From assembly GCA_965199715.1 (NCBI GenBank), contig CBDATA010000001.1:1-64000 (forward strand): a DNA stretch of 64,000 nucleotides, read 5' to 3'. This stretch comes from Vicinamibacteria bacterium. Lineage in GTDB: Bacteria > Acidobacteriota > Vicinamibacteria > Marinacidobacterales > Marinacidobacteraceae. Under the pieces are notes generated by a model. That model did not search any database. It saw nothing but the letters and a program-made list of their open reading frames with translations, and was not told the origin of the DNA. Shown here piece after piece: positions 1,748 through 19,211 of the stretch. Within the stretch, counting starts at the first letter, position 1. Every line of letters begins with the position of its first letter. A program made the position numbers and the translations under genes.

Positions 1748-1773
1748 ATTCGGGATCGGGACCGGAGCCCGCC

Positions 1774-1977
1774 GTGACGCGCCGGTCCCTTCTCGCGCTT
1801 CCCGCCGGGGTGGTGCTGGCGCGCCTGCTCGTCGCGCTCGCCCCGGCGGATCCGCTGCTGATCGGCGTTCCCGCCGGCGTGTGGCTCGAGCTCGCCGTCG
1901 TCGCGCTCTCGACGGTCTCGCTCGCGCTCCTGTGCCGGGCGTTCCTTCCCGGATCGACTGAGGCGCCCCCCGAGTGA
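1774..1977 (+). CDS. Small membrane protein, probable SSS transporter accessory subunit (copy 1)
   Basis: GTG start, 67 aa, two hydrophobic segments, GTGA overlap with the symporter gene. Confidence 0.55.
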   Translation: MTRRSLLALPAGVVLARLLVALAPADPLLIGVPAGVWLELAVVALSTVSLALLCRAFLPGSTEAPPE

Positions 1978-3431
1978 CGCTCGCCGTCGTCGGCCTCTAC
2001 CTGGCGCTCGTCGTCGGGATCGGCGTCTTCGCCCGGATGCGCCGCGGCTCGGGCGAGCAGTATTTCCTCGCCGGACGCGCGCTCGGGTCGTTCGTGCTGC
2101 TCATGACGCTCTTCGGCACGAACATGACCGCGTTCACGATCCTCGGCGCGTCGGGCGAGGCGCACCGGCAGGGCCTTCGCGTGTTCGCGCTGATGGCGAC
2201 CAGCTCGGCGGTGGTCATCCCGCTCACCTTCCTCCTGATCGGCGTCCCGCTGTGGCGCTTCGGGAAGCGTTTCGGGCACGCGACGCAGGCCGAGTTCTTC
2301 GCCGACCGCTACGGCTCGCGCGCGCTCGGGACCGTCGTCTTCCTGTGCTCGCTGTTCTGGCTCGTGCCCTACGTGCTGATCGGGGTCAAGGGCGGCGGCG
2401 ACGCGCTGGCGGCGATCGCCGACGCTTCGGTCGCGCCGCCGTCGTGGCTCGGGAGCCTGATCCTGTGCCTCGTGGTCTTCGTGTACGTGGTGCTCGGGGG
2501 AATGCGCAGCACCGCGCTCGTGAACACCTTTCAGACCTCGCTGTTCGTGGGCGTGGCGGTCGTGGCGTTCCTCGTGATCTCGAACGGACTCGGGGGCTTC
2601 GTCCCGGCGATGGAGCGGCTGCGCGACGCGAACCCGGAACTGATGGAGATCGCCTCGACGCGGCGGGACTGGATCCAGATCGCGACCTACCTCTTCGTCC
2701 CGCTCTCGACGTCGTGCTTCCCGCACATCTTCGGGCTGTGGATGGCGGCCCGGAGCGCGGCGTCGTTCCGGCTTCCGATTCTCGCGTACCCGGCGATGAT
2801 CGCGCTGGTGTGGCTCCCGAGCGTCGTGCTGGGCGCGCTCGGCCGGCTCGACGTGGCCTTTCCGCCGGACGGGCCGATCCTGATCCTGCTCATCCGGGAG
2901 CACGTCGGAAGCCTCCTCGCCGGATGCCTCGCCGCCGGCGTGTTCGCGGCGATCATGTCCTCGCTGGATTCGCAGACGCTCACCGTCGGGACCATGCTGA
3001 CGCGCGACGTCGTCGCGCGTTCGGCCCGTTTCGCGCGCCTCGCGGAGGGCAGGGAAGCGCTTTTCGGGCGGGTTTTCGTGGGCCTGTTCCTTCTCGTCGT
3101 GTTCGTGCTCAGCCTGGTCTCCAGCCAGACCGTCTTCAGCTTGGGGATCTGGGCGCTGTCCGGGTATTCGGGCTTCTTCCCGGTGCTCGTCGGGGCGCTC
3201 TACTGGCGCGGAAGCACGGCCGCCGGCGCCGGCGCGGCGATCCTCGTGAGCCTCGCGCTTTGGACCGGGTTCTTCGTGAGCGCCGGGGGCGCGCCCGGCT
3301 GGACCGTGGCGGATTCCGGGGTCGAGCCGGCGGCGGCGATCGTGGCGGCCTCGGCCCTGACCCTGGTCGTCGTGTCCCAGTGGACCCGGAGCCCGGAGCG
3401 GGACCGGGTGCGCCGCTTCTTCCCCGGGTAG
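1974..3431 (+). CDS. Sodium:solute symporter family protein (copy 1)
   Basis: YFLAGR, GGMRS and AAIMSSLDS SSS motifs; many TM helices. Confidence 0.9.
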   Translation: MTLAVVGLYLALVVGIGVFARMRRGSGEQYFLAGRALGSFVLLMTLFGTNMTAFTILGASGEAHRQGLRVFALMATSSAVVIPLTFLLIGVPLWRFGKRFGHATQAEFFADRYGSRALGTVVFLCSLFWLVPYVLIGVKGGGDALAAIADASVAPPSWLGSLILCLVVFVYVVLGGMRSTALVNTFQTSLFVGVAVVAFLVISNGLGGFVPAMERLRDANPELMEIASTRRDWIQIATYLFVPLSTSCFPHIFGLWMAARSAASFRLPILAYPAMIALVWLPSVVLGALGRLDVAFPPDGPILILLIREHVGSLLAGCLAAGVFAAIMSSLDSQTLTVGTMLTRDVVARSARFARLAEGREALFGRVFVGLFLLVVFVLSLVSSQTVFSLGIWALSGYSGFFPVLVGALYWRGSTAAGAGAAILVSLALWTGFFVSAGGAPGWTVADSGVEPAAAIVAASALTLVVVSQWTRSPERDRVRRFFPG

Positions 3432-3444
3432 GATTCGGCCTCTC

Positions 3445-4455
3445 ATGGCCGCATTCCTCGCGTTCGCGCTGCTCGCCGCCGCGTCGCAGACCGAGACCGT
3501 CTTCCATACGTTCTCGATCGCGGCGGTCGATCGCGAAACCGGCGAGGTGGGCGTGGCCGTGACCACCCGCAACCCGTGCGTTGGGAACGGCGTGCCGTGG
3601 GTGCGGGCCGGCGTGGGCGCGGTCGCGACGCAGGCGCGCACGCGGACCCGGTACGGCGCGGAGCTGCTCGATTTGCTCGAAGCCGGCCGCACGCCCGAGG
3701 ACGCGCTCGCCGAACGGCTCGCCGATGACGAGCAGGCCCCGAACCGGCAGGTCGGAGTCGTCGCGCTCGCCGGCGGCGCGGCCCAGCACACCGGCGCGGA
3801 CGCGAGCGCGTGGGCCGGCCACCGAGCCGGGGCCGACTACGCGGCCCAGGGCAACCTGCTGGTCGGACCGGAAGTCGTGGACGCGGTGGCCGAGTCGTTC
3901 GAGAGCACGAGGGGGAGCGGGCTTTCGCTCGCCGACCGGCTGGTCGCGGCGCTCGAGGCGGGGCAGGCGGCCGGCGGCGACGCGCGCCGGGGGCGGCGGC
4001 AGTCGGCTTCGGTGATGGTGGCGGACTCCCGTCCCGACCACTCGCGCCGCGACGACGGCCTTTCGACCCACATCAACGTCTGCGAGCACGCGACTCCGGT
4101 GGCCGAACTGCGGCGCATCCACGACGCGGTCAGCCAGAAGGTCGGGTATCGGACCCTGACTGGATTCACCGGCGGCGACGTCCTCCAGTTGCGGGTTCTC
4201 CTCGCCGAGGCGGGTTGTTCCGCCTCCGTGACCGACGAGGAGCTCGGGGAGGGCCGCACGCGCCGTTACGACGCGGCGCTCATGGAGGCGGTGGACGGCT
4301 GCCGTCGCGACCTGGGCCTCTCCGCGCCCGAGCAGGGGTCCCCGCCGGGCCTCGCCGACGCGGAGTTCGTGGAACGCCTCTGGAGCCGCATCCCCGAGGC
4401 CGACCGGGAGGCCGTGCGGCGACGGCTTGCCCCGCTGCGGCGCATCACGAGGTGA
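3445..4455 (+). CDS. DUF1028 (Ntn-hydrolase-like) protein with peptidoglycan-binding-like C-terminus (copy 1)
   Basis: [44 protein letters not shown]. Confidence 0.85.
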
Positions 4456-4460
4456 CCCCC

Positions 4461-5546
4461 ATGGAACCCACCGCCGCCGGGCGGCCCGTCCGGATCGACC
4501 TGAGAAGCGACACCGTCACCCGCCCGACGGAAGCGATGCGGGCGGCGATGGCGGCCGCGCCGGTCGGCGACGACGTGTACGGCGACGACCCGTCGGTGAA
4601 CCGGCTCGAGGAGCGCACCGCCGAGGCGCTCGGGAAGGAGGCCGCGGTCTTCACGCCCACCGGGACGATGAGCAACCAGATCGCGCTCCGGGCGCAGACC
4701 GAGCCCGGAGACCTGGTCCTCGCCGAGTCCCGCGCCCACCTCTATCTGGTCGAGAGCGGCGGCCCGGCCGCGCTCTCCGGCCTGACGGTCCTCGGCCTCG
4801 AAGGGGAGCGGGGCGCGTTCGCTCCCGAGCAGGTGCGGACGGCCGTGCTCGAGCCGCACCCGATGGTGCCGATGGCGTGCCATCCGCCGGCGCGCCTCGT
4901 CGCCGCCGAGAACACCCACAACGCTTCCAGCGGAACGGTCTGGCCGTTCGAGCGGCTCAAGGCGGTGGGGGAGACCGCGGCGGAGCTCGGGCTCGCGGCG
5001 CACCTCGACGGCGCCCGCCTCTGGCACGCGACGGCGGCTACCGGGATCCCCGAGGCCGAGTGGGCCGCGAGCTTCCAGACGGTGAGCGTCTGCTTCTCGA
5101 AGGGCCTCGGCGCGCCGATGGGCTCCTGCCTCGCCGGTCCGGCGCCGGTGATCCGCCGCGCCCGCCGCTTCCGCCAGTTGTTCGGCGGCGGCTTCCGTCA
5201 GGCCGGAATCCTGGCCGCGGGCGCGCTCCACGCGCTGGAGAACCATCGGGACCGGCTCGTCGAGGACCACGCCCGCGCCCGCCGGCTCGCGGCCGGGCTC
5301 GCCGCGATCCCGGGAATCGACGTGGACCCGCACGCGGTCGAGACGAACATCGTCCGTTTCCGTACGCCGGGGATGAACGCCTTCCGCCTCGCTGAGCGCC
5401 TGCTCGCGGACTGGCGGGTGGCGACGCTGCCCGGCGGCCCGGACGCGATGCGGATCATCCCGCACCTCGGCACGTCCGACGCGGACGTCGAGGACGCGCT
5501 GAAAGCGTTCGCCGCGTGTCTCGCCGCCGCTCCGGTCAGCGCCTGA
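4461..5546 (+). CDS. ltaE: Low-specificity L-threonine aldolase (copy 1)
   Basis: [37 protein letters not shown] (PLP lysine). Confidence 0.92.
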
Positions 5547-5564
5547 GTTCCGCCCGGCTGCGGG

Positions 5565-6371
5565 CTATTCGCACACGACGCCGTCGCCGTCGCCGTCGTT
5601 CATGAACGGGTACGCGACGTGGCCTCGCTTCACCGGCGCGATGCCGTGGCGCCGGGCCTCGGCGCACGTGATCCTCCCGTTCCCGTCATCGTCCCACCGC
5701 GCGATTTCGGATGGGGAACTTGATCGGGGACTTGGGCCTCCAACGGGCGTCGCGCCGCGCTCATACACCACGAGCGCGGTCGATGGACAGGATTGGAGCA
5801 CCCGTTCGAGGGCGTTGGCCTCGCGGCGGTTCACGGTCAGCCCGTACTTCAGCTTCACCGCCACGACCCGGCTTGCGAACCAGCACTTGTTCTTCTCCGG
5901 CAGCCACTCTGCGGCGTCGCTGTCGGACTTCTGGTGACGATTCACGTTCGGGGCCGCGAGAGTCAGATTCAGGAGGTCGCGGGCGAATGTCCGCCGGGTC
6001 GCCCGCGAGGCCGCGCACAGCCCGCTGTCGTGCGCTTCGGATCTCGCGACCATGTGTTCGATATCCGTCTGTGTATCGGAAACGAACCAGCGGCCGGTAT
6101 AGGGCCCGTACACGCCGCCGAGCCGGGCCGTGATCCGATCCTCGACCGACTGGGGATATGGGTAGTCGCGGGCCCGGTACGGCGAACAGCGATTCTCCGG
6201 AGCCACCCTGAGACCTCGCCATAACTCGGACGAGGCTGCATGATTCGCCGAGCCGACCGCGCCGACAAGCAGAACCAGGCAAAGTGCGGCGACCGGCGAT
6301 CGGTGGCCGCATAAATGGAAGCCGAACGTCGTCGCCCGCCATGAAACCGTTTCCGAAGAAGTAACCGACAT
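5565..6371 (-). CDS. DUF1524-type HNH nuclease with C-terminal Excalibur Ca-binding domain (copy 1)
   Basis: DIEHMVARSEAHDSG...NL...VN..KSD..AAEWLP; C-terminal TCAEAR...DGDGDGVVCE; hydrophobic N-terminus. Start uncertain. Confidence 0.8.
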   Translation of the reverse strand: MSVTSSETVSWRATTFGFHLCGHRSPVAALCLVLLVGAVGSANHAASSELWRGLRVAPENRCSPYRARDYPYPQSVEDRITARLGGVYGPYTGRWFVSDTQTDIEHMVARSEAHDSGLCAASRATRRTFARDLLNLTLAAPNVNRHQKSDSDAAEWLPEKNKCWFASRVVAVKLKYGLTVNRREANALERVLQSCPSTALVVYERGATPVGGPSPRSSSPSEIARWDDDGNGRITCAEARRHGIAPVKRGHVAYPFMNDGDGDGVVCE

Positions 6372-6406
6372 TGCGCCATCGACTCTAGAACGTCTGGCGG
6401 AGGCGG

Positions 6407-6589
6407 TCAATCGGCGCAAGACGCCGGACGTCCTGGCGCGAGCGTCGCGTCGCGGCGGAGCCGGCGTCCGCGCCCGTTGCGGGTCACGGCGTCGCCGAGC
6501 AGCCCCGAGTCCATGGCGCGGCGGATGTGCCGAACCGCAAGCCCAGTGATGCCGGACACCTCGTTCGGAGTCAGCGTGGGAGCGTCCAT
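6407..6589 (-). CDS. Small HTH (excisionase/MerR-like) protein, possibly truncated (copy 1)
   Basis: TLTPNEVSGITGLAVRHIRRAMDSG helix-turn-helix pattern. Confidence 0.5.
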   Translation of the reverse strand: MDAPTLTPNEVSGITGLAVRHIRRAMDSGLLGDAVTRNGRGRRLRRDATLAPGRPASCAD

Positions 6590-6647
6590 GGGGGGCGGGA
6601 CTGTAGCGCCGCCGGCCGTTGGAGAAACGGGCGTGGCCCGCCCGCGC

Positions 6648-9605
6648 TCAGCCCTCGCCGAAGACGGAACCCTGCGTGAACGCTTCCGACTGGGACAGCC
6701 GGACGATCTCCGGCCAGCTCTGGACGAGGCGGTTGTACGCGTGCGCCTCCGCCGCCCGGTTCTTCCGGTCGCACAGCGTGTAGACGCGGTAGCAGAGTTC
6801 CCGGGCCGCCTCGCCCTTGCTGCCGAGCTTGGCGACCACTTCGGCGGCGCCCGCCTCGCCGTCCTTGTCGAGGCGGCGGATCAGGTGGTGGACGATCTCC
6901 CAGACGGTCAGCCGATCATCGGTCTCGGGGTCCCATGACTCGTCCAGGTTTTCCGGCCGCAGGATCCACACCTCGCCGCCCTTGGACTTGAGGACGCCCG
7001 CCTCGTCAAGGCCGTCCACGCTGGTGTTCTTCGCCTTCGTGAGCGTCTCGGCGATGCCGTAGTCCCCCCGGTCGAACCCGAACTGCTCGAACCACGCGAG
7101 CGCCCAGCGGGTGTCCGCGTCGAAATCGCCCTCCTGCTCGGCGAGCACCTCGTCGAGCGTGCGGTTGATCGCGGCGAGCGCCTCGCGCACGGACATTGCG
7201 TTCCCTTCGGCGTCGAGCACCTTCCCGTAACGCGTGTACACGGCCATGCCCGGACCGATGGCCGCCTGCGCCAGATCCACCGGGGCCACGTTGCCCGACT
7301 GGAGGAGCCGAAGGGCCTGCGGAAGCTCGGCGCGAAGCTCGGTCAGGAACTCGCGGCGGGTCGCGGCCGGAGCGTCGTCGGGCCGCCGCCGGCAGACCAG
7401 CACGATGGACGAGGCGAGCGCGTTGGCGCCCATTGCGATCCTCCGGTTGCGCAACTCGGTGCGCATCGGCCAAGTTCCGGTGATCGCCAACCCGGACTTC
7501 ATCGCGGCGTCGAGGAACGTCTCCCATCCCGTGCTCGCGACCCCGGAGTCCTCCTTGGTTTCGGACTGCTTGAAGGCGTAGTAGATCGTCACGGGAAAAC
7601 CCGGATGCGCACGTTCCGTCAGCCTTCGTATCGCCCGCGACATGCCGGAGAGAAAGAAAGCCTCCGCCGCGTCCTTGCTTCCATGGCGATACGGCGTCGC
7701 GACGAGTTCCTCGGCCTTCGGAACAGCGACCGTGGCGAACAGCTCTGGAAACACTGACTTGAGCGAGCGTCGTAGCCAGACGTAGAAGAAATCCGACAAG
7801 TCGGCGTAGCCGATGTTGTCGTAGTACGGGGGATCGGTCGATACGACCTTGTCTCCACTCAAATCCTGTTTCTGAGCCGCGGCCGTGACACTGTGTGCAG
7901 GAACGCGAGGCGATAGCCATTCCAATGTCTTCTTGATCCAGCCAATGCCTCCAGCGATGCTCCCCGTCGAATCCGAAAAGGCGTTCGCTTCGGCAAAGTC
8001 CCACGTCATCGGAAAGGCCTGTAGCCCCAAGGTGTTCCGTACCGTTTGACGGCTCGCATCCCACGTGCAGATTGTCGAGCAACGGTCTCCGAGTCTGTTT
8101 ACCGACAGGCCCAGATACAGGGACGCCGCCTCGGCGTAGGCGGTCGCGCCGAGGCCGCCGTCGCGCAGAGGGCGGTCGTCGTCGGGGAGGCCGGCCGAGG
8201 CGGCGTCATCCCGGATTCGCGCGCGGGCCTCGCCGACGAGGTCCGAGAACGTCGTCAGGGCCACGAGCTGGCGATCAGTGAAGAGGTCCGCGAACGTGGG
8301 GAGGCCATAGTTGGGGGTCTTGAAGTCGCGCGGGTTGTCCGGCAACAACATGTCCGGCCGCCAGGTTGGTGATGCGCCCGCAGCAGCCACGGCGTGTCGA
8401 GTGATCGGCGACAGGTAGACTCGCCCCTTGTCCCCTTCGGCGACGACGGCGAGTAGGCGAGCGCCCATTCCGCCCCGTTTGCCCTCGGCGCGAATGTGGT
8501 CGTACGGAACCGGAACGCCGGACATGAGGCAGCGGAATGCGCGACGCCGGCCGGCGGTAGTGCCCAGGTTCGTCGCCGTCCGATCCGTCGGGGGGCCGAC
8601 GCGCACGCGGAACCGGTAGCCCCGTCCCTCGACCGCCGGCTCCACCCACGCCTCCTTCCCCTTCTTCGTCGACAGCATGAACGTCGACGCCAGCGGAACC
8701 TCCACGTCTCCGAACGCCGGGTTCGGGCTCCTTACCGTCCGCGCCCACAGCCACGCGATCACCGTCAGCTCCCGCCCCTCGTACGCCTTCAGGTCCGGGC
8801 GCTCCCGCGCCATCTCCGCCGTGACCTCCACCTTCGGGTACAGACGGCCGATCCGCTTCTCCGCCTCGTCCCGCATCCACTTCCCGTAGTACCGGACGTC
8901 CTCGGCGAGGCCGGTCGCTCCCGGCCACGCCTTCGCAACCACCGTCTGCTTCGCCCGGGAGTCCGGGTTCACCGGCGGCCTCCCCGCGAACTTCGGCGGG
9001 ATCTCGATCATCGCCTTGTTGATGAGCACCGCCACCGGGTTCAGGTCGGAGGCGTGCGCCTCGAGGCCGAGCCGCTGCGCCTCCAGCGGCAGCGCCCCGC
9101 CCCCGGCGAACGGATCGTGGAAGGCCGGGAGCCGGTTCCGGTCGAAGAGCTCGTCCGCCCGGGGGTGGTCCGCGTTCTCGGCGCAGGCTCGCCGCCAGCT
9201 CTCCCGGATCTCCGCCCGCGCCGTCTCCAGCACCGTCTCGTTGGCCGTGTTCTCCCACTTCACCAGGTCCTCGACGATGCGGAAGAGCCGCTGGCGCTCC
9301 CGCTCCGCCGCGACCTCGGCGAGGGCCGTCGGCGTCGCCTCCCGCCCGCGCTTCCTCAACTCCCGCCTCGCGGCCGCCCGCGTCGGGCCGTCCGACAGCA
9401 GCGCGTCCGCGTACTCCGACGGGTCGTCGACCAACTGACCGAAGATCACGGCTCGGGCCACCGCCAGCGGCTTGCGCGACCACCACAGGTGGAGCGTCGA
9501 GGGATGGCCATGACGCACCGACTTCTCGCGGGCGCCGGCGGCGTTGATCTCGTCGAGGGGCAGCGCCACCTCAATGAGCTTGCGGCGAGGACGATCTAGC
9601 GACAT
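6648..9605 (-). CDS. DUF1156 adenine-specific DNA methyltransferase, allele L
   Basis: KLIEVALPL...EKS.RHGHPSTLHLWW.R.PL (DUF1156), DPFAGGG motif I, TDPPYYDNI.YADLSDFFYVWL motif IV. Confidence 0.93.
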   Translation of the reverse strand: MSLDRPRRKLIEVALPLDEINAAGAREKSVRHGHPSTLHLWWSRKPLAVARAVIFGQLVDDPSEYADALLSDGPTRAAARRELRKRGREATPTALAEVAAERERQRLFRIVEDLVKWENTANETVLETARAEIRESWRRACAENADHPRADELFDRNRLPAFHDPFAGGGALPLEAQRLGLEAHASDLNPVAVLINKAMIEIPPKFAGRPPVNPDSRAKQTVVAKAWPGATGLAEDVRYYGKWMRDEAEKRIGRLYPKVEVTAEMARERPDLKAYEGRELTVIAWLWARTVRSPNPAFGDVEVPLASTFMLSTKKGKEAWVEPAVEGRGYRFRVRVGPPTDRTATNLGTTAGRRRAFRCLMSGVPVPYDHIRAEGKRGGMGARLLAVVAEGDKGRVYLSPITRHAVAAAGASPTWRPDMLLPDNPRDFKTPNYGLPTFADLFTDRQLVALTTFSDLVGEARARIRDDAASAGLPDDDRPLRDGGLGATAYAEAASLYLGLSVNRLGDRCSTICTWDASRQTVRNTLGLQAFPMTWDFAEANAFSDSTGSIAGGIGWIKKTLEWLSPRVPAHSVTAAAQKQDLSGDKVVSTDPPYYDNIGYADLSDFFYVWLRRSLKSVFPELFATVAVPKAEELVATPYRHGSKDAAEAFFLSGMSRAIRRLTERAHPGFPVTIYYAFKQSETKEDSGVASTGWETFLDAAMKSGLAITGTWPMRTELRNRRIAMGANALASSIVLVCRRRPDDAPAATRREFLTELRAELPQALRLLQSGNVAPVDLAQAAIGPGMAVYTRYGKVLDAEGNAMSVREALAAINRTLDEVLAEQEGDFDADTRWALAWFEQFGFDRGDYGIAETLTKAKNTSVDGLDEAGVLKSKGGEVWILRPENLDESWDPETDDRLTVWEIVHHLIRRLDKDGEAGAAEVVAKLGSKGEAARELCYRVYTLCDRKNRAAEAHAYNRLVQSWPEIVRLSQSEAFTQGSVFGEG
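8113..8276. repeat. Internal conserved block B, inverted partner at 14355-14518
   Basis: ~164 bp near-identical (DRQLVALTTFSDL...AASLYL) between two divergent regions. Confidence 0.85.
8584..9263. repeat. Internal conserved block A, inverted partner at 13371-14050
   Basis: ~680 bp near-identical (VKWENTANE...RVRVGPPTD) with scattered substitutions. Confidence 0.85.
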
Positions 9606-9753
9606 TCGCCGTTCGGGAGGGAACGGAGCAGGTCAAGCGGTGTCCTGCTAGCGATGCTGTTCCCAACGCGGGCCGTGAGGTCGCGCCGACCGGACGCTTC
9701 CGAGGCTTGATCTTGACGGGGTTCGGGAAGTGTGGATTGGATCGGAGAGCGAG

Positions 9754-10833
9754 TCACGAGGGGCGTATTCTCGCCGGTGGCGGTGGATTCTGAACGGCCT
9801 TCCTGAGAACGATTTGCCCCTCGCTGGCGACCACGCGAAGTGCGTCGCCTTCTCGCAGGCCGGCCTCGGCCAAGACGCTGGCCGGCAGCGTCACCGTGTT
9901 CCCGACGCGCAGCCGCACGGTCTCCACTGCACTCCGTGCACGCGGGGCCCGTGCAACTACGCCGCCGCCCAGCAGACTCGCGACGCAGCCTCCGACCCGC
10001 TCCGCGGCGGCCTCCACCTCGCGGTCGCTCACGTGCGCATAGCGCATCGTCATCCGGGGCTGCGCATGGCCGAGCAGGCGCGAGACCACCGGAAGCGGCA
10101 CGTCGCTCATCACCGCATGGCTCGCGAACGTATGCCGCAGGTCGTGGAGGCGCACGTCCGGGATCCCGGCGGTGCGCCGAACCTTGCGCCAGAGCGACAG
10201 TTCGGCGGCGCGGGGCTGGGTGGAGTCCGCCAGCGACGGGAACACGAACGGACTGTCCGAACGCGGTTGCCGGGCGAGGATCGCCCGCGCCCGCTCGTTC
10301 AGGACGACCGTGCGAGGGCCGGTCTTGGAGTCCACGAGCCGCAGCGCGTCCTCGCCGACCTCCGACCAGCGCAGCCCGACGATCTCTCCCTTGCGGCAGC
10401 CGGTCAGCAGCAGCAGGCGGATGATCTCCGCCTGCTGCCTTCCCGAGCCGCGACCCCGGTGGGCGTCGAGCGCCTGATGGAGGCGGTGGATTTCATCATG
10501 GGAGAGGAACCGGGTGAGCCGCGGCCGCGGATTCCGGCGCACTCCCCGCGTGGGGTTCTTCTTGACGTGGCCGCAAGCGACCGCGTGGTTGAGGATCTGC
10601 CGCAGCACATCGAGCGTCCGGTTCGCGCCGGCGGGGGCACTCTGGCCGTAGCGGTCGAACCAGCGGTGGACATCGCGGCGGCGGATGCGATCCAGCCGCC
10701 GTTTCCCGAACGCCGGCAGAAGTTGGGTCCGCAGGGCGCTGTCCATCCGAACCCGGGTCGAACGCTTACAGCGGTCGTAGCACGCAGTTGTCCACTCGGT
10801 CTCGACGAATCGCCCGAACGTGGGCTCCGTCAC
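9754..10833 (-). CDS. Tyrosine recombinase/integrase with AbrB-like C-terminal extension
   Basis: TGCRKGE, HDLRH, LLGH, MRYAH catalytic set intact; tail GNTVTLPASVLAEAGLREGDALRVVASEGQIVLRK. Confidence 0.9.
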   Translation of the reverse strand: MTEPTFGRFVETEWTTACYDRCKRSTRVRMDSALRTQLLPAFGKRRLDRIRRRDVHRWFDRYGQSAPAGANRTLDVLRQILNHAVACGHVKKNPTRGVRRNPRPRLTRFLSHDEIHRLHQALDAHRGRGSGRQQAEIIRLLLLTGCRKGEIVGLRWSEVGEDALRLVDSKTGPRTVVLNERARAILARQPRSDSPFVFPSLADSTQPRAAELSLWRKVRRTAGIPDVRLHDLRHTFASHAVMSDVPLPVVSRLLGHAQPRMTMRYAHVSDREVEAAAERVGGCVASLLGGGVVARAPRARSAVETVRLRVGNTVTLPASVLAEAGLREGDALRVVASEGQIVLRKAVQNPPPPARIRPS

Positions 10834-11711
10834 GGATGCGGATCAAGCGCTGCTCCGACTGCTTCGGCTGCGTCGCGGATCATCGGATCGGCGACATGCG
10901 CGTATCGGAGCGTCGTCGTGGGATCCAAGTGTCCCAGTAATCGGCCGATGGTGAGGAGAGTCTCGCCCCGGCGCAGCGCGAGGCTCGCGAAGCTGTGGCG
11001 AAGGTCGTGGAGGCGGAGGTCGGGCAGGCCGGCGGCGACGCGGACGACGCGCCAGACGCGGTAGAGCGACTCGTTCGGCATCGCGTCATTCCCCGAGGGT
11101 GCCGGGAACGCCCAGTCGGACGTTCTCGGCAGGGAGTCCAGCAGCGACCGGGCGGAGGAAGACAGCCAGACGGTGCGCGGGCCGACCTTGCTGTCCCGGA
11201 GATACAGGTTCCCTTCCCGATACTCCGACCACTTCAGGGTTCGGAGCTCTCCCTGACGGCATCCCGTCAGCGCCAGCAGCCGGATGAGAGCGATCGGAAG
11301 CGGGGCGGAGTCCTCGTGGACCTCAAGCGCCCTTCCGAGTTGGCGGAACTCCGCCTCGCTGAGGAACCGGGAGCGTCCGCGCTCCCGGAAGCGCCTCAGT
11401 CGCACGCAGGGGTTGCTGTCCTCGGGCCGGTAGCCGTAGAGCTCGGCCTGACGCAGGATCACGGACAGGATCGGGAGCGAACGGTTGGCGGCGGCCGGGG
11501 TCTCTCGCAGGGCGGCGAACCACCGCTCGACCTCCCGGCGGTCGATCTCGCCGACCGGAAGATCGCGGAACCATGGCAGGAGCCGGCTGCGCAGATACGC
11601 CCGATTCACCTTGGCGGTTCGCGGCTTCCAGCGGGAGCCGTAGCGCCGGAAGACCTCCTCCGCGGCGGTCTCGAAGAGGGGACTGCGGGGTTTGGTACGG
11701 TTCGCCGGCAT
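10830..11711 (-). CDS. Tyrosine recombinase/integrase
   Basis: TGCRQGE, HDLRH, LLGH, LRYAH; 4-nt overlap with the downstream recombinase. Confidence 0.92.
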   Translation of the reverse strand: MPANRTKPRSPLFETAAEEVFRRYGSRWKPRTAKVNRAYLRSRLLPWFRDLPVGEIDRREVERWFAALRETPAAANRSLPILSVILRQAELYGYRPEDSNPCVRLRRFRERGRSRFLSEAEFRQLGRALEVHEDSAPLPIALIRLLALTGCRQGELRTLKWSEYREGNLYLRDSKVGPRTVWLSSSARSLLDSLPRTSDWAFPAPSGNDAMPNESLYRVWRVVRVAAGLPDLRLHDLRHSFASLALRRGETLLTIGRLLGHLDPTTTLRYAHVADPMIRDAAEAVGAALDPHP

Positions 11712-11880
11712 GCGAGTGAGAGTGACCGTGTGTCGGGCCCCGCAGCGGGTTCGGGGGCGTCGCCGTCAGGTTGGACGCCCCGTTAGTTCGTGCTGATGCG
11801 AGAGTCGGGCATGGCGGCCCGGTATTCCCTCGCTGCAGGCTCTCCGATCCTCGTAGGTTGGTTCCCGGAGGGCCGTACCG

Positions 11881-13029
11881 GTGCCTGACATGCGGACGCT
11901 CCTTGACCGGATCCGGCACGGCATTTCGGATGGCGCGTACCCCAATGAGGCGGCGGTTGGCAGTCAAATCGTGCTGCCGCTGCTACGTGCGCTGAGTTGG
12001 GACGTGACGGACCCATCCTTCGTGCGCCATCAGTTTCCCCTTCCGCTCAAGGATACGACTCGATACGTGGACTTGGCGTTGTGCGTATCGGGCAGCAATC
12101 CAAGATATATCATTGAGTTGAAGGCCATCGGGAAAGTTCTGAGGGCCACTCGCGGGCTTGGGTCCGAACGCCAGATGTTCGAGTACGCCTTCCATGCCGG
12201 AGCCCCATTGGCCCTGCTGACCAATGGCGCGGAATGGCGCTTCTACTCAGCGCAGAGCGCTGGCACATATGACGAGCGGCTGGTGTGTGCGTTCAACCTC
12301 GTGAACGACGAACACGAACGCATCGTGAACGATCTGGAGCGATACCTCTCGTACGCGAACGTGAAGTCGGGCCACGCGGCTGACTTCGCCCGGGAGGATC
12401 TGAGAATCCGGCACGGTCAGCAGGAGGCGAAGAAGGCCATTCCCGCCGCGTGGGATCAACTCCGCACGGGCGATGTGAACGATCGCTTGGTGGCGCTCGT
12501 GAGCGAGACGACGGCTGCGCTCGCCCAAGGTGAACCGCGACGGGAGGATGTTGCCGAGTTTCTTCGCGGCTTGGCCCCGAGTAAACGCCCGCCGCGTCCG
12601 GTAGTACTCAAGCCGAAGCTTGAGGCGATCGGCCCACGAGAACCACGCCGAGGCGATAGGAAGACGAGTTCGAGCGATGGCTCAGGTTCTGTCCGCTACA
12701 TGCTCCTCGGCGAGGAACGGCGGGCGAAGACTCTGACAGAGGTGTATGTCAAAGTGTTTCGCGCCCTCGCCGAGCGTGATTCGGGTTTTCTGGACCGGGT
12801 GGAGCCAAGGCTCCGTGGCAAGAAGAACCGAGTTGTTGCCCGAACGCGGGATGCGCTCGCCGAGGTCCCGAGGATGAGGTCCACAGCCGTCCAACTACCC
12901 CGCGACTGGTGGTTGCTCACGTGGTTCGGCAGCAAAATGAAGCTTCGGAAGCTGCGCATCGCTTGCGAAGTCGCCGGGATTCCGTTCGACGATCGCTCCG
13001 GACTCAAGATCGACCTGCCGAGCGACTGA
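11881..13029 (+). CDS. PD-(D/E)xK restriction endonuclease-like protein (HsdR_N-like) with SeqA-like C-terminal domain
   Basis: NEAAV..QIVLPLLRAL.WD, VDLAL...IIELK, Q.FEYA, LLTNG.EWRFY; stop lies 14 bp before MTase R start. Confidence 0.8.
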   Translation: MPDMRTLLDRIRHGISDGAYPNEAAVGSQIVLPLLRALSWDVTDPSFVRHQFPLPLKDTTRYVDLALCVSGSNPRYIIELKAIGKVLRATRGLGSERQMFEYAFHAGAPLALLTNGAEWRFYSAQSAGTYDERLVCAFNLVNDEHERIVNDLERYLSYANVKSGHAADFAREDLRIRHGQQEAKKAIPAAWDQLRTGDVNDRLVALVSETTAALAQGEPRREDVAEFLRGLAPSKRPPRPVVLKPKLEAIGPREPRRGDRKTSSSDGSGSVRYMLLGEERRAKTLTEVYVKVFRALAERDSGFLDRVEPRLRGKKNRVVARTRDALAEVPRMRSTAVQLPRDWWLLTWFGSKMKLRKLRIACEVAGIPFDDRSGLKIDLPSD

Positions 13030-13043
13030 AGAGCGGAGCGACC

Positions 13044-15995
13044 ATGGGGCGCAAGCTGATCGAAGTCGCCCTTCCTCTCAAGGCGATCAACGAGGCCTCC
13101 GCACGGGAGAAGTCGATCCGGCACGGGCATCCGTCCACCCTACATCTCTGGTGGGCGCGGCGTCCGCTCGCCGCCGCCCGAGCGGTGATCTTCGGTCAGT
13201 TGGTGGACGACCCGTCGGAGTACGCGGACGTGCTGCTCATGGATCCACCGACCAAACGGTTGGCGCTCAACGAGTTGAAGAGGCGCGGGCAGGAGGCGAC
13301 TCCGGCCGCCCTCGCCGAGGTCGCGGCGGAGCGGGAGCGCCGGCGGCTGTTCGGGATCCTCGAGGCGTTGGTGAAGTGGGAGAACACGGCCAACGAGAAG
13401 GTGCTGGAGGCGGCGCGGGCGGAGATCCGGGAGAGCTGGCGAAGGGCCTGCGCCGAGAACGCGGACCACCCCCGGGCGGACGAGCTCTTCGACCGCAACC
13501 GGCTCCCGGCCTTCCACGATCCGTTCGCCGGGGGCGGGGCGCTGCCGCTGGAGGCGCAGCGGCTCGGCCTCGAGGCGCACGCCTCCGACCTGAACCCGGT
13601 GGCGGTGCTCATCAACAAGGCGATGATCGAGATCCCGCCGAAGTTCGCGGGGAGGCCGCCGGTGAACCCGGAGTCGCGGGCGGCGCAGACGGTGGTTGCG
13701 AAGGCGTGGCCGGGGGCGACCGGCCTCGCCGAGGACGTGCGCTTCTACGGGAAGTGGATGCGGGACGAGGCGGAGAAGCGGATCGGCCGTCTGTACCCGA
13801 AGGTGGAGGTCACGGCGGAGATGGCGCGGGAGCGTCCGGACCTGAAGCCGTACGAGGGGCGGAAGCTGACGGTGATCGCGTGGCTGTGGGCGCGGACGGT
13901 AAGGAGCCCGAACCCGGCGTTCGGAGACGTGGAGGTTCCGCTGGCGTCGACGTTCATGCTGTCGACGAAGAAGGGGAAGGAGGCGTGGGTGGAGCCGGCG
14001 GTCGAGGGCCGGGGCTACCGGTTCCGCGTGCGCGTCGGCCCCCCGACGGACGGGGGCACGAAGACAGGGACAAAGGTCGCCCGAGGCGCGAACTTCCGCT
14101 GCCTGATGTCGGGCACGCCGATCGCGGGCGACTACGTCAAGGCCGAGGGCGTGGCCGGGCGGATGGGGTCGCGGATGCTCGCGATCGTGGCCGCCGGAGA
14201 TCGCGAGCGGATTTACCTCTCGCCGGTAGCGAACCACGAGCGGGCCGCCGTCAACGCCAATCCGGCTTGGCGGCCCACGGAGCCGTTGCCGCATGACCCG
14301 CGGGCGATTTGGGTCGTCCTCTACGGACTGACCGAGTTCGGGCATCTCTTCTCGGATCGCCAGCTCGTGGCCCTGACGACGTTCTCGGACCTCGTCGGCG
14401 AGGCCCGCGAGCGAATCCGGGATGACGCCGCCTCGGCCGGCCTCCCCGACGACGACCGTCCGCTGCGCGACGGCGGCCTCGGCGCGACCGCCTACGCCGA
14501 GGCGGCGTCCCTGTATCTCGCGTTCGTGCTCAGCAAACAAGCTGACCTCGGGAATGCGCTGTGCGCCTGGGAACCAGTAGCCCAATGTCCCCGCCACCTG
14601 TTTGGTCGCCAAGCCATTCCCATGGTGTGGGATTACGCCGAAGGAAACCCTCTCGGCAAGGCCTCTGGCGCATGGCTAGTACTCCTTGAAGGCGTTGTTC
14701 GGGCGTTCTCCAAGGCGTTCGGTTCAATTTATGGCCGAGCGATCGGCTATGCGGAACAACAAGATGCGAGGTTGCAAAATGTTTCCTCGGGCCGAGTTGT
14801 TTCAACGGATCCTCCATACTTCGACAACATCGGATATGCCGACCTCTCCGACTTCTTCTATGTGTGGCTCCGTCGCTCCATGCGGACAGTGTTCTCCAAC
14901 GCGCTAGGCACTGTAGCCGCCCCGAAACAGCCCGAGCTGGTTGCTACGCCGTACCGGCATGGAGGAAAGGAAGCTGCCGAGCACTTCTTTGTAGAGGGGA
15001 TGACCGACGCGATGAGTCGGGTCTCGGCGCAGACGCACGAGGCTTTCCCGACGACGATCTTCTACGCGTTCAAGCAGTCCGAACAACGTGACGAAACGGG
15101 CGCTACAAGTACCGGCTGGGAGACATTTCTTGAGGCGGTAATGCGATCTGGTTTCGCGATTACGGGCACTTGGCCCATGCGGACGGAGAATTCCTCGCGT
15201 CTCGGTGGAATCGGAACCAACGCCCTCGCCTCCTCCATCGTGCTGGTCTGCCGGCGGCGGCCCGACGACGCCCCGGCCGCCACCCGGCGGGAGTTCCTGA
15301 CCGAGCTTCGTTCCGAGCTTCCGCAGGCCCTTCGGCTGCTCCAGTCGGGCAACGTCGCCCCGGTGGATCTGGCGCAGGCGGCCATCGGTCCGGGCATGGC
15401 CGTGTACACGCGTTACGGGAAGGTGCTCGACGCCGAAGGGAACGCAATGTCCGTGCGCGAGGCGCTCGCCGCGATCAACCGCACGCTCGACGAGGTGCTC
15501 GCCGAGCAGGAGGGCGATTTCGACGCGGACACCCGCTGGGCGCTCGCGTGGTTCGAGCAGTTCGGGTTCGACCGGGGGGACTACGGCATCGCCGAGACGC
15601 TCACCAAGGCCAAGAACACGAGCGTGGACGGGCTTGACGAGGCCGGCGTCCTCAAGTCCAAGGGCGGCGAGGTGTGGATCCTGCGGCCGGAAAACCTGGA
15701 CGAGTCATGGGACCCCGAGACCGATGATCGGCTGACCGTCTGGGAGATCGTCCACCACCTGATCCGCCGCCTCGACAAGGACGGCGAGGCGGGCGCCGCC
15801 GAAGTGGTCGCCAAGCTCGGCAGCAAGGGCGAGGCGGCCCGGGAACTCTGCTACCGCGTCTACACGCTGTGCGACCGGAAGAACCGGGCGGCGGAGGCGC
15901 ACGCGTACAACCGCCTCGTCCAGAGCTGGCCGGAGATCGTCCGGCTGTCCCAGTCGGAAGCGTTCACGCAGGGTTCCGTCTTCGGCGAGGGCTGA
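13044..15995 (+). CDS. DUF1156 adenine-specific DNA methyltransferase, allele R
   Basis: ATG at 13044 after GGAG; same DUF1156, DPFAGGG and TDPPY motifs as allele L. Confidence 0.93.
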   Translation: MGRKLIEVALPLKAINEASAREKSIRHGHPSTLHLWWARRPLAAARAVIFGQLVDDPSEYADVLLMDPPTKRLALNELKRRGQEATPAALAEVAAERERRRLFGILEALVKWENTANEKVLEAARAEIRESWRRACAENADHPRADELFDRNRLPAFHDPFAGGGALPLEAQRLGLEAHASDLNPVAVLINKAMIEIPPKFAGRPPVNPESRAAQTVVAKAWPGATGLAEDVRFYGKWMRDEAEKRIGRLYPKVEVTAEMARERPDLKPYEGRKLTVIAWLWARTVRSPNPAFGDVEVPLASTFMLSTKKGKEAWVEPAVEGRGYRFRVRVGPPTDGGTKTGTKVARGANFRCLMSGTPIAGDYVKAEGVAGRMGSRMLAIVAAGDRERIYLSPVANHERAAVNANPAWRPTEPLPHDPRAIWVVLYGLTEFGHLFSDRQLVALTTFSDLVGEARERIRDDAASAGLPDDDRPLRDGGLGATAYAEAASLYLAFVLSKQADLGNALCAWEPVAQCPRHLFGRQAIPMVWDYAEGNPLGKASGAWLVLLEGVVRAFSKAFGSIYGRAIGYAEQQDARLQNVSSGRVVSTDPPYFDNIGYADLSDFFYVWLRRSMRTVFSNALGTVAAPKQPELVATPYRHGGKEAAEHFFVEGMTDAMSRVSAQTHEAFPTTIFYAFKQSEQRDETGATSTGWETFLEAVMRSGFAITGTWPMRTENSSRLGGIGTNALASSIVLVCRRRPDDAPAATRREFLTELRSELPQALRLLQSGNVAPVDLAQAAIGPGMAVYTRYGKVLDAEGNAMSVREALAAINRTLDEVLAEQEGDFDADTRWALAWFEQFGFDRGDYGIAETLTKAKNTSVDGLDEAGVLKSKGGEVWILRPENLDESWDPETDDRLTVWEIVHHLIRRLDKDGEAGAAEVVAKLGSKGEAARELCYRVYTLCDRKNRAAEAHAYNRLVQSWPEIVRLSQSEAFTQGSVFGEG

Positions 15996-16053
15996 GCGCG
16001 GGCGGGCCACGCCCGTTTCTCCAACGGCCGGCGGCGCTACAGTCCCGCCCCCC

Positions 16054-16236
16054 ATGGACGCTCCCACGCTGACTCCGAACGAGGTGTCCGGCATCACTGG
16101 GCTTGCGGTTCGGCACATCCGCCGCGCCATGGACTCGGGGCTGCTCGGCGACGCCGTGACCCGCAACGGGCGCGGACGCCGGCTCCGCCGCGACGCGACG
16201 CTCGCGCCAGGACGTCCGGCGTCTTGCGCCGATTGA
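16054..16236 (+). CDS. Small HTH protein (copy 2)
   Basis: Identical translation to 6407-6589. Confidence 0.5.
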   Translation: MDAPTLTPNEVSGITGLAVRHIRRAMDSGLLGDAVTRNGRGRRLRRDATLAPGRPASCAD

Positions 16237-16271
16237 CCGCCTCCGCCAGACGTTCTAGAGTCGATGGCGCA

Positions 16272-17078
16272 ATGTCGGTTACTTCTTCGGAAACGGTTTC
16301 ATGGCGGGCGACGACGTTCGGCTTCCATTTATGCGGCCACCGATCGCCGGTCGCCGCACTTTGCCTGGTTCTGCTTGTCGGCGCGGTCGGCTCGGCGAAT
16401 CATGCAGCCTCGTCCGAGTTATGGCGAGGTCTCAGGGTGGCTCCGGAGAATCGCTGTTCGCCGTACCGGGCCCGCGACTACCCATATCCCCAGTCGGTCG
16501 AGGATCGGATCACGGCCCGGCTCGGCGGCGTGTACGGGCCCTATACCGGCCGCTGGTTCGTTTCCGATACACAGACGGATATCGAACACATGGTCGCGAG
16601 ATCCGAAGCGCACGACAGCGGGCTGTGCGCGGCCTCGCGGGCGACCCGGCGGACATTCGCCCGCGACCTCCTGAATCTGACTCTCGCGGCCCCGAACGTG
16701 AATCGTCACCAGAAGTCCGACAGCGACGCCGCAGAGTGGCTGCCGGAGAAGAACAAGTGCTGGTTCGCAAGCCGGGTCGTGGCGGTGAAGCTGAAGTACG
16801 GGCTGACCGTGAACCGCCGCGAGGCCAACGCCCTCGAACGGGTGCTCCAATCCTGTCCATCGACCGCGCTCGTGGTGTATGAGCGCGGCGCGACGCCCGT
16901 TGGAGGCCCAAGTCCCCGATCAAGTTCCCCATCCGAAATCGCGCGGTGGGACGATGACGGGAACGGGAGGATCACGTGCGCCGAGGCCCGGCGCCACGGC
17001 ATCGCGCCGGTGAAGCGAGGCCACGTCGCGTACCCGTTCATGAACGACGGCGACGGCGACGGCGTCGTGTGCGAATAG
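16272..17078 (+). CDS. DUF1524-type HNH nuclease + Excalibur domain (copy 2)
   Basis: Identical translation to 5565-6371. Confidence 0.8.
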   Translation: MSVTSSETVSWRATTFGFHLCGHRSPVAALCLVLLVGAVGSANHAASSELWRGLRVAPENRCSPYRARDYPYPQSVEDRITARLGGVYGPYTGRWFVSDTQTDIEHMVARSEAHDSGLCAASRATRRTFARDLLNLTLAAPNVNRHQKSDSDAAEWLPEKNKCWFASRVVAVKLKYGLTVNRREANALERVLQSCPSTALVVYERGATPVGGPSPRSSSPSEIARWDDDGNGRITCAEARRHGIAPVKRGHVAYPFMNDGDGDGVVCE

Positions 17079-17096
17079 CCCGCAGCCGGGCGGAAC

Positions 17097-18182
17097 TCAG
17101 GCGCTGACCGGAGCGGCGGCGAGACACGCGGCGAACGCTTTCAGCGCGTCCTCGACGTCCGCGTCGGACGTGCCGAGGTGCGGGATGATCCGCATCGCGT
17201 CCGGGCCGCCGGGCAGCGTCGCCACCCGCCAGTCCGCGAGCAGGCGCTCAGCGAGGCGGAAGGCGTTCATCCCCGGCGTACGGAAACGGACGATGTTCGT
17301 CTCGACCGCGTGCGGGTCCACGTCGATTCCCGGGATCGCGGCGAGCCCGGCCGCGAGCCGGCGGGCGCGGGCGTGGTCCTCGACGAGCCGGTCCCGATGG
17401 TTCTCCAGCGCGTGGAGCGCGCCCGCGGCCAGGATTCCGGCCTGACGGAAGCCGCCGCCGAACAACTGGCGGAAGCGGCGGGCGCGGCGGATCACCGGCG
17501 CCGGACCGGCGAGGCAGGAGCCCATCGGCGCGCCGAGGCCCTTCGAGAAGCAGACGCTCACCGTCTGGAAGCTCGCGGCCCACTCGGCCTCGGGGATCCC
17601 GGTAGCCGCCGTCGCGTGCCAGAGGCGGGCGCCGTCGAGGTGCGCCGCGAGCCCGAGCTCCGCCGCGGTCTCCCCCACCGCCTTGAGCCGCTCGAACGGC
17701 CAGACCGTTCCGCTGGAAGCGTTGTGGGTGTTCTCGGCGGCGACGAGGCGCGCCGGCGGATGGCACGCCATCGGCACCATCGGGTGCGGCTCGAGCACGG
17801 CCGTCCGCACCTGCTCGGGAGCGAACGCGCCCCGCTCCCCTTCGAGGCCGAGGACCGTCAGGCCGGAGAGCGCGGCCGGGCCGCCGCTCTCGACCAGATA
17901 GAGGTGGGCGCGGGACTCGGCGAGGACCAGGTCTCCGGGCTCGGTCTGCGCCCGGAGCGCGATCTGGTTGCTCATCGTCCCGGTGGGCGTGAAGACCGCG
18001 GCCTCCTTCCCGAGCGCCTCGGCGGTGCGCTCCTCGAGCCGGTTCACCGACGGGTCGTCGCCGTACACGTCGTCGCCGACCGGCGCGGCCGCCATCGCCG
18101 CCCGCATCGCTTCCGTCGGGCGGGTGACGGTGTCGCTTCTCAGGTCGATCCGGACGGGCCGCCCGGCGGCGGTGGGTTCCAT
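17097..18182 (-). CDS. ltaE: Low-specificity L-threonine aldolase (copy 2)
   Basis: Identical translation to 4461-5546. Confidence 0.92.
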
Positions 18183-18187
18183 GGGGG

Positions 18188-19198
18188 TCACCTCGTGATG
18201 CGCCGCAGCGGGGCAAGCCGTCGCCGCACGGCCTCCCGGTCGGCCTCGGGGATGCGGCTCCAGAGGCGTTCCACGAACTCCGCGTCGGCGAGGCCCGGCG
18301 GGGACCCCTGCTCGGGCGCGGAGAGGCCCAGGTCGCGACGGCAGCCGTCCACCGCCTCCATGAGCGCCGCGTCGTAACGGCGCGTGCGGCCCTCCCCGAG
18401 CTCCTCGTCGGTCACGGAGGCGGAACAACCCGCCTCGGCGAGGAGAACCCGCAACTGGAGGACGTCGCCGCCGGTGAATCCAGTCAGGGTCCGATACCCG
18501 ACCTTCTGGCTGACCGCGTCGTGGATGCGCCGCAGTTCGGCCACCGGAGTCGCGTGCTCGCAGACGTTGATGTGGGTCGAAAGGCCGTCGTCGCGGCGCG
18601 AGTGGTCGGGACGGGAGTCCGCCACCATCACCGAAGCCGACTGCCGCCGCCCCCGGCGCGCGTCGCCGCCGGCCGCCTGCCCCGCCTCGAGCGCCGCGAC
18701 CAGCCGGTCGGCGAGCGAAAGCCCGCTCCCCCTCGTGCTCTCGAACGACTCGGCCACCGCGTCCACGACTTCCGGTCCGACCAGCAGGTTGCCCTGGGCC
18801 GCGTAGTCGGCCCCGGCTCGGTGGCCGGCCCACGCGCTCGCGTCCGCGCCGGTGTGCTGGGCCGCGCCGCCGGCGAGCGCGACGACTCCGACCTGCCGGT
18901 TCGGGGCCTGCTCGTCATCGGCGAGCCGTTCGGCGAGCGCGTCCTCGGGCGTGCGGCCGGCTTCGAGCAAATCGAGCAGCTCCGCGCCGTACCGGGTCCG
19001 CGTGCGCGCCTGCGTCGCGACCGCGCCCACGCCGGCCCGCACCCACGGCACGCCGTTCCCAACGCACGGGTTGCGGGTGGTCACGGCCACGCCCACCTCG
19101 CCGGTTTCGCGATCGACCGCCGCGATCGAGAACGTATGGAAGACGGTCTCGGTCTGCGACGCGGCGGCGAGCAGCGCGAACGCGAGGAATGCGGCCAT
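18188..19198 (-). CDS. DUF1028 protein (copy 2)
   Basis: Identical translation to 3445-4455. Confidence 0.85.
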
Positions 19199-19211
19199 GA
19201 GAGGCCGAATC

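Follow-up and report, generated by a model that had tools for sequence, protein, structure and literature searches.

In shufflons of the R64 type a single recombinase, Rci, works on short conserved sfx crossover repeats. Programmed inversions are also known for the defence genes coding for PglX of type 1 BREX (bacteriophage exclusion), DrmMI of DISARM (defence island system associated with restriction-modification) and Cj0031-like type IIG enzymes as well as for hsdS (PMC9881135). The inversion loci of pglX in Lacticaseibacillus rhamnosus and Brevibacterium casei were demonstrated by long reads (PMC9881135), and the outcome of hsdS inversion is a switch of methylation specificity (PMC4948785, PMC7096588). 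The Hma system consists of the helicase HmaA, the methylase HmaB and the DUF499 ATPase HmaC (PADLOC, PMC8565338; PMC12839542; 10.1101/2024.01.29.577857). HmaB closely mirrors the methyltransferases of type 3 BREX and has a recognition insert after core strand 2 (PMC12839542). The accessible text of 10.1101/2024.01.29.577857 and PMC12839542 describes neither inverted hmaB copies nor a recombinase at hmaB nor hmaB inversion, and integrases get one passing mention there among embedded genes. Here we analyse the first 64,000 nucleotides (nt) of contig CBDATA010000001.1 from a Vicinamibacteria bacterium (assembly GCA_965199715.1), referred to as the window, and describe a locus which is probably a cassette-switching shufflon for HmaB of the DUF499-centred, BREX-related Hma defence system.

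The locus includes two hmaB copies, Wa and Wb, located on opposite strands in inverted orientation and pointing apart (Table 1). Wa matches the Pfam family DUF1156 (PF06634) with an E-value of 1.6e-25 and the PADLOC HmaB profile (PDLC00660) with 1506 bits, while the corresponding values for Wb are 2.7e-26 and 1487 bits; both matches span positions 8-956 of the 967 positions of the HmaB profile. The NCBIfam model DUF1156_antiphage gives 116.5 bits against a cut-off of 1000, so equivalog status is not reached. A sequence-only reading of the window had recognised two full-length DUF1156 methyltransferases here. The profile matches bear out the family assignment, but the 3' part of Wa, from position 7434 leftwards, falls in the suspect arm of a perfect repeat ending at the contig start (see below).

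The same reading placed two intact tyrosine recombinases and a nuclease between the methyltransferases, in agreement with the Pfam matches and catalytic motifs found by us. The rec1 product, aligned to a solved XerC-like structure, has the HxLRH and LLGH...RY motifs (hdlrhtfa, llgha, mryahv), and the rec2 product, aligned to the solved XerA structure, has the HxxR box, the LLGH box and the tyrosine (hdlrhsfa, llghl, lryahv); both carry the catalytic motifs of tyrosine recombinases. They are about 45% identical to each other according to cross-matches, and neither of them reaches the XerC or XerD equivalog cut-offs of NCBIfam. The rec1 product also has a C-terminal MazE/AbrB-like stretch (amino acids (aa) 313-349, MazE_antitoxin E-value 1.1e-05), which is absent from rec2. 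The HSDR_N-domain protein is closest to the Atlas clusters of stand-alone HSDR_N proteins (score 0.97), and no PADLOC or NCBIfam family matched it.

Inverted repeats were located with a repeat finder and divergence was profiled in 60-nt windows. The two hmaB copies share conserved blocks A, B and C, separated by the divergent cassettes V1 (between A and B) and V2 (between B and C). The inverted repeats A and B are far above chance expectation, and their coordinates in the sequence-only reading were right to within about 100 nt. Block A is 95-100% identical among all five hmaB copies found in the genome, and its repeat extends at 77% identity through 9382-9584/13050-13252. Block C, thought earlier to run to the stop codon, is really the inner tip of a 7,434-nt inverted repeat. 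V2 is divided into V2-I and V2-II by a weak inverted repeat, the DPPY islet. Thus the locus has the layout of a gene-altering programmed inversion locus: repeats within the coding sequence and an inverted paralogue, with a recombinase nearby.

Motif I of the FxGxG type (FAGGG, aa 166-170) and motif IV (DPPY, aa 591-594) are invariant in Wa, Wb and C1a, the left copy of a second locus in the genome, and are conserved in 78 of the 78 aligned homologues. Since FAGGG is located in block A and DPPY in the islet inside V2, both V1 and the initial part of V2 (aa 498-588) are bracketed by these motifs, just where the sequence-only reading had put them. The cassettes could not be placed on a solved recognition domain because the AlphaFold2 model built on the 78-sequence alignment was poor (mean predicted local distance difference test score 64.9, predicted template modelling score 0.38, methyltransferase core below 50), leaving the cassettes unmappable, while Foldseek gave none of its 160 listed PDB matches at E <= 0.001 and phmmer found no match among the PDB sequences.

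A search of genomes for inverted DUF1156 pairs flanking integrases, suggested by the sequence-only reading, has shown that the layout recurs. Among the best 80 HmaB loci from genome_contigs (flanks of up to 10 kb, some contigs being short), nine have an inverted second copy, and every one of these nine carries homologues of both rec1 and rec2 at 60-73% identity. The recombinase pair is present in none of the remaining 71 loci, three of which have only weaker single integrase matches below 50%. According to the titles of their records, the nine loci belong to Vicinamibacteria, three Bryobacterales, Acidobacteriota, Thermoanaerobaculia, an Acidobacteria bin, Longimicrobiales and Candidatus Multivorans metagenome-assembled genomes (MAGs). 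In metagenome contigs of the Joint Genome Institute (JGI), 80 loci were kept among the rec1-like matches; only one of them exceeds 50% identity to rec1 (72%), and it is flanked by an inverted HmaB fragment on one side and a full HmaB on the other (locus L109). In the loci searched, rec1 and rec2 at an identity of at least 60% were found only beside inverted HmaB copies.

HmaB is present in 18 of the 41 related genomes searched. In four relatives assembled into one or two contigs (G003, G008, G002 and G014) HmaA and HmaC adjoin the full hmaB, the inverted copy and the rec2/rec1 pair. One census locus, L030, has the layout of G003 and may be the same locus, so the census and four-relative counts are not additive. 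The inverted copy ends at aa 793-800 in seven of the nine census loci, as would be expected of a silent cassette, and likewise at aa 793 in C2e, a further copy in the genome of the window; in the four relatives it mostly ends near aa 796, in G008 at aa 850. In L055 the inverted copy has kept its 3' end and lost its 5' end. In the relatives the second copy is usually 3'-truncated, and only one copy has the C-terminal 190 aa, which argues for one expression site and one silent cassette rather than two expressed genes. G006 and G011 gave 11 and 16 HmaB matches, including several adjacent open reading frames (ORFs) for an N-part (profile positions 4-461) and a C-part (455-959) split at block B, e.g., G011:C1:144498-147421; these recall the split pglX presented in PMC9881135.

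The succession of high identity in A, low in V1, high in B, low in V2 and high in C was observed in all six gene pairs compared (the window, the second locus of the same genome, G003, G008, G014 and G002). Windows of block A reach 95-100% nucleotide identity in each of the six pairs and those of block B mostly 93-100% (80% in G014), while V1 and V2 drop to 35-70%. As HmaB proteins are only 60-70% identical across genomes, this pattern points to concerted evolution of the blocks.

The genome of the window (two contigs, 2.66 Mb, 71% G+C) has five HmaB copies in three loci: Wa and Wb in the window, C1a and C1b in contig C1, and C2e at the far end of contig C2, which starts with the window. The two loci outside the window had escaped the sequence-only reading. 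The C1 locus repeats the gene order of the window: copy(-), rec1, rec2, HSDR_N gene, copy(+). In C1a, the left copy, resemblance to the family is lost from about aa 903 on (profile position 885 of 967), and C1b, the right one, is split between two frames near aa 410-437. A 305-nt element (L001 8098-8402) abuts the 3' end of C1a and has a 96% identical copy at C1:568412-568725; it may be a small repeat or an insertion remnant that truncated C1a. C2e lies directly behind a canonical Hma system with HmaA (1568 bits), embedded HEC-01B and HEC-01A, and HmaC (1085 bits). It is inverted and convergent with hmaC, and carries the same recombinases alongside; contig C2 stops about 95 nt short of the next block A. 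A SIR2 and prokaryotic Argonaute-like ORF with weak PADLOC matches was noticed upstream of this Hma island (L002 2489-3865). The change of frame at the end of V1 in C1b (L001 14329-17354) and C2e (L002 12769-15191) could reflect pseudogenes, sequencing errors or natural two-part enzymes.

Comparison of the five copies in 100-nt windows has shown 95-100% identity in alignment columns 500-1100, 1500-1600 and 2400-2600 and 50-65% between them. The copies switch their nearest relative at block borders: C2e is identical to C1a (100%) in 5' block A, and to C1b (99-100%) in columns 1500-2000. Over the first 300 nt similarity follows position, with left copies alike (Wa and C1a are 92% identical) and Wa and Wb reaching only 72-83%, which suggests that exchanges occur distal to this region.

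A natural chimera was found among public proteins. P0001 (962 aa), encoded on an 18-kb contig of another assembly, is the best database match to the variable part of Wa. Its V1, block A and C-terminal tail are 100, 99 and 99% identical to C1a, while V2-I and V2-II are 87 and 96% identical to Wa, compared to 42 and 67% for C1a. As this protein combines a C1a-like V1 with a Wa-like V2, the sequences show that natural re-assortment of V1 and V2 takes place, with blocks B and C as the exchange points. The chimera shows exchange over evolutionary time and not switching within a clone. In a protein search with Wb the best match besides its own protein was 69% identical, and no Wb chimera was seen.

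The shufflon-like design put forward in the sequence-only reading, with inverted conserved blocks, divergent cassettes and resident recombinases, is therefore real and recurs elsewhere with the same recombinase pair. We propose that its fixed part is a core formed by rec2, rec1 and the HSDR_N gene together with both 5' ends of hmaB, while the invertible part would be made of the inverted blocks A, B, the DPPY islet and C, separating V1 and V2. Recombination between the two copies of a block, presumably catalysed by the rec1 and rec2 products, both being likely to be needed, would invert everything between these copies. Inversion at A or C would exchange whole cassette sets and move them into the site with the full C-terminal domain, whereas at B, and possibly at the DPPY islet, it would re-pair V1 with V2. 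Two cassettes of two kinds would permit four alleles at the expression site. Should the cassettes determine the methylated motif, as their position suggests, methylation and defence specificity would change along with them.

The similarity of the blocks may also be explained differently. The loci could be static paralogues, i.e., old inverted duplications kept similar by occasional RecA-dependent gene conversion, with recombinases belonging to a resident mobile element and no programmed switching; some transposons likewise carry two tyrosine recombinases side by side. We consider this unlikely, as the layout and the recombinase pair are shared by Vicinamibacteria, Bryobacterales, Thermoanaerobaculia, Longimicrobiales and further MAGs, the silent copy tends to end at the same residue, the pair was seen only at loci with inverted HmaB copies, and block borders are sharp and common to different genomes. 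Several observations nevertheless favour static paralogues and weigh against the shufflon. Pairwise 24-nt scans revealed no short motif common to A, B, the DPPY islet and C, the best agreement being 17-19 of 24 positions, which looks like chance in DNA of 70% G+C; the scans thus give no ground for proposing a crossover site shared by the blocks. Blocks are only 78-90% identical in L103, L055 and L030, and RecA-type exchange could account for the homogenised blocks. Two of the five copies, C1b and C2e, are frame-split near aa 383-437. No read or contig with the same flanks in both orientations was found in the Logan contigs and short reads (about 2-4x) of public runs; the contigs break inside conserved blocks, so that neither V1/V2 phasing nor an orientation count is possible with them. 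With regard to the shufflon alone, the second half of V2 is downstream of DPPY and outside the classical recognition region, and we infer the change of specificity from cassette position only. In further searches the rec1-like JGI metagenome loci included no near-identical strain in another orientation, and the exact 47-nt V2a pattern had no matches in JGI metagenome contigs.

The assembly itself required attention. Base 1 of the window is base 1 of contig C2 (308,411 nt), and the inverted repeat of which block C is the tip, overlooked by the sequence-only reading, is 100% complementary over its whole length and stops exactly there. At the other end of C2 the final 3,600 nt agree with C1:758739-762338 at 100% identity; the full match is 4,279 nt long, and all 11 mismatches fall in its first 679 nt, inside block A. 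Both C2 ends run into exact copies of sequence present elsewhere; at one end the copy starts where block C has its inner edge, at the other it starts within block A.

Ten public runs were listed, seven of them containing the central stretch. Window positions 7435-27434 were compared with three runs available as Logan contigs (X5, X6 and X1) and one raw short-read run (X8), the latter with a depth of only about 2-4x. On the 3' side of Wb public contigs go on through 16168-27434, and in all three contig runs single contigs starting at 16168 cross 22642/22643 unbroken. The outer end of the repeat is therefore no biological boundary, and a true inverted duplication ending at 22642 was ruled out. 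An integrated element with direct target duplication was also ruled out as the origin of the second copy in view of the inverted orientation of the copies and their conserved layout. In all three contig runs contigs end at 16168-16197, about 200 nt past the Wb stop codon, where depth drops from 215.8 to 146.7 (X5), from 285.3 to 248.7 (X6) and from 83.3 to 61.1 (X1), which fits a branch in the assembly graph. Flank contigs have a depth of 146.7 (X5), 248.7 (X6) and 61-62 (X1), and core contigs (9528-13337) of about 86, 87.5 and 43-50, respectively. Two arms per core require a ratio of at least 2 in every run; the flank (arm) to core ratios of word depth are 1.7 (X5), 2.8 (X6) and about 1.25 (X1) instead of a constant 2, though contig word depth is rough and gives no copy number, so that these ratios are indicative only, a weakness of our argument. 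In some contigs a different sequence links 7841 to 8111, and in some it links 14087 to 14156; they show that alternative sub-cassettes are present in the samples, the source of which could be paralogous loci.

Taken as assembled, the window would have two full-length expressed hmaB genes in a perfect inverted duplication of at least 7.4 kb. In favour of this, database records place the exact Wa protein on two contigs (exact Wb on one), the ratio in X6 is compatible with two arms, and a Bryobacterales MAG locus (L054) does have two full-length copies and an HSDR_N gene, which leaves a real two-gene form conceivable here. The L054 repeat (1479-3596/12187-14303) runs 1.3 kb past the stop codons over a GntR/FCD gene at 98% identity; this is either a real two-gene form or large inverted duplication, or a short contig folded from two strains. 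Yet identity of 100% over 7,434 nt compared to 96% in block A and 93% in block B, the abrupt end at the contig start, ratios below 2 in X1 and X5, branching of contigs close to the stop codon and not further out, a similar exact copy at the other contig end, and truncation of the second copy in seven of nine related loci make a correct assembly quite improbable. The public contigs give no support to a second full-length gene as a genomic copy.

With the perfect repeat stopping where the contig begins and a depth unfit for two arms, the left arm, together with its "two full-length genes", is probably an assembly product (a fold-back) rather than another copy in the genome. Two kinds of reads, some having Wa and some having Wb beside the one right flank, were probably linked by the assembler through the shared core: an overlap assembler would fold back, since both read sets overlap perfectly there. 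The sample would then have contained either the two inversion states or two strains set apart by the inversion, and the fold-back may have joined them. The folded contig and the variable ratio of core to flank depth are only indirect hints of alternative orientations. Loci of this kind can lead assemblers of long-read metagenomes to fold a contig onto itself, and "two full genes" at the end of a contig call for caution. On the whole, what the sequence-only reading observed stands in part, and its interpretation is likewise partly supported.

We also envisage, as a more tentative possibility, cassette exchange between loci: a heteromeric Xer-like recombinase pair would invert segments within each hmaB locus, and the long shared blocks would let the three loci trade recognition cassettes. 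One hmaB locus would then belong to the Hma operon, with two orphan loci as cassette stores, and the C2 ends, with their exact copies starting at the edge of a conserved block or inside one, would be footprints of ongoing rearrangements in a natural population.

The surroundings of the shufflon-like locus are included in Table 1. As assembled, no HmaA or HmaC is found beside it; the only DUF499 match of the genome is at the far end of C2, and both contig ends are unreliable. The 166-nt element behind Wb is 84% identical to C2:293732-293895, on the same strand upstream of hmaA, and may mark both borders of the Hma island, in which case the two C2 ends would belong together. One frame of this element (copy at L002 3733-3896) resembles the start of a small helix-turn-helix type protein. 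An Rfam scan of 15500-17000 gave no match, so the element corresponds to no known RNA, and a promoter and terminator scan of 6400-16300 gave signal at the level of shuffled sequence. Elsewhere in the window, 30120-30880 contains three direct copies of a 233-nt unit, two of them 79 and 64% identical to the first, with spacings of 269 and 259 nt.

Table 1. Features of the hmaB locus, its surroundings and related loci of the genome (window positions unless a contig is given)
Feature	Position	Strand	Inverted partner	Description
hmaB copy Wa	6648-9605	-		985 aa as assembled; DUF1156 N6-adenine methyltransferase
hmaB copy Wb	12909/13029-15995	+		full length; junction with the flank backed by public contigs
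rec1	9754-10833	-		tyrosine recombinase, 359 aa; Phage_integrase E 2.8e-23
rec2	10830-11711	-		tyrosine recombinase, 293 aa; Phage_integrase E 6.9e-15
HSDR_N-domain gene	11881-13029	+		382 aa, nuclease-like; directly upstream of Wb; HSDR_N E 1.7e-07
Block A left	8584-9362		13272-14050	inverted repeat, 779 nt, 96%
Block A right	13272-14050		8584-9362	
Block B left	8113-8310		14321-14518	inverted repeat, 198 nt, 93%
Block B right	14321-14518		8113-8310	
DPPY islet	7717-7847		14796-14926	weak inverted repeat, 131 nt, 71%; inside V2
Cassette V1 left	8311-8583		14051-14320	aa 341-443; 46-65% nucleotide identity per 60-nt window
Cassette V1 right	14051-14320		8311-8583	
Cassette V2 left	7435-8112		14519-15208	38-76% nucleotide identity per 60-nt window
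Cassette V2 right	14519-15208		7435-8112	
Left arm	1-7434		15209-22642	starts at base 1 of contig C2; probably an assembly product
Right arm	15209-22642		1-7434	block C, hmaB 3' end, flank genes
166-nt element	16032-16197	+		after the Wb stop codon; its end is a branch point of public contigs
GmrSD_C/Excalibur gene	16224-17078			right arm; Pfam
Beta-eliminating lyase gene	17097-18833	-		right arm; Pfam
685-aa ORF	18852-20909			right arm
C1 locus	C1:756397-765329			inside the 2.35-Mb contig; different flanks on the two sides
Hma island	C2:294407-302759			L002 4408-12760 of C2:290000-308411; far end of the contig that starts with the window

Comparison with known systems shows what the window locus has in common with them and where it stands apart. 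A close counterpart is pglX, likewise an N6-adenine defence methyltransferase gene with an inverted partial copy, nested inverted repeats and a tyrosine recombinase in the locus; inversion there exchanges the middle part and keeps the N- and C-termini constant (PMC9881135). HmaB differs in belonging to the DUF1156 family and the Hma system, in having two tandem paralogous recombinases rather than one, in the HSDR_N gene in the core of the window locus and in several loci per genome sharing cassettes. Inversion of pglX was seen by long reads, whereas that of the HmaB locus is a proposal. With hsdS of type I systems (pneumococcal SpnIII/ivr, PsrA) the locus shares inverted repeats, expressed and silent cassettes and a resident tyrosine recombinase (PMC4948785, PMC7096588), but hsdS codes for a separate specificity subunit with two recognition domains, while HmaB cassettes are inside the catalytic methyltransferase itself. 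Class 1 DISARM drmMI and Cj0031-like type IIG genes also code for large single-chain defence methyltransferases with gene-altering inversions, although these are other protein families with other partners, and no dual recombinase is reported for them in the relevant passages of PMC9881135. Wa and Wb resemble the methylase of Hma systems in being full-length HmaB, and the same contig has HmaA, HEC-01 and HmaC near the third, truncated inverted copy; unlike in a complete Hma system, the window locus as assembled adjoins neither HmaA nor HmaC. As in the R64 shufflon, multiple inversions would re-assort gene segments behind a constant part, but the HmaB repeats are 130-780 nt long and without a common short site found, so the locus is not of the R64 type.

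The sequence-only reading knew of no such phase-variable DUF1156 system, and this holds as far as our search went: no published programmed inversion was found for Hma/DUF1156 methyltransferases, supplementary tables being outside the search. The main text of PMC9881135 does not contain "Hma", and its supplements may list DUF1156 genes among predicted targets. Novelty is limited, however, by the inversions of PglX, DrmMI and type IIG genes already in print (PMC9881135). What appears to be new, no earlier report having been found, is that the Hma/DUF1156 family would join the methyltransferases already known to undergo programmed inversion. Hma/DUF499-centred systems are a widespread and little-studied relative of BREX; if our interpretation is true, a conserved two-recombinase switch would add one more defence family to those with programmed specificity switching and offer a compact natural set of allele pairs for learning how DUF1156 enzymes read DNA. 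Compared to the systems described so far, the unusual traits of the HmaB loci are the conserved recombinase pair and the presence of several loci in one genome sharing cassettes.

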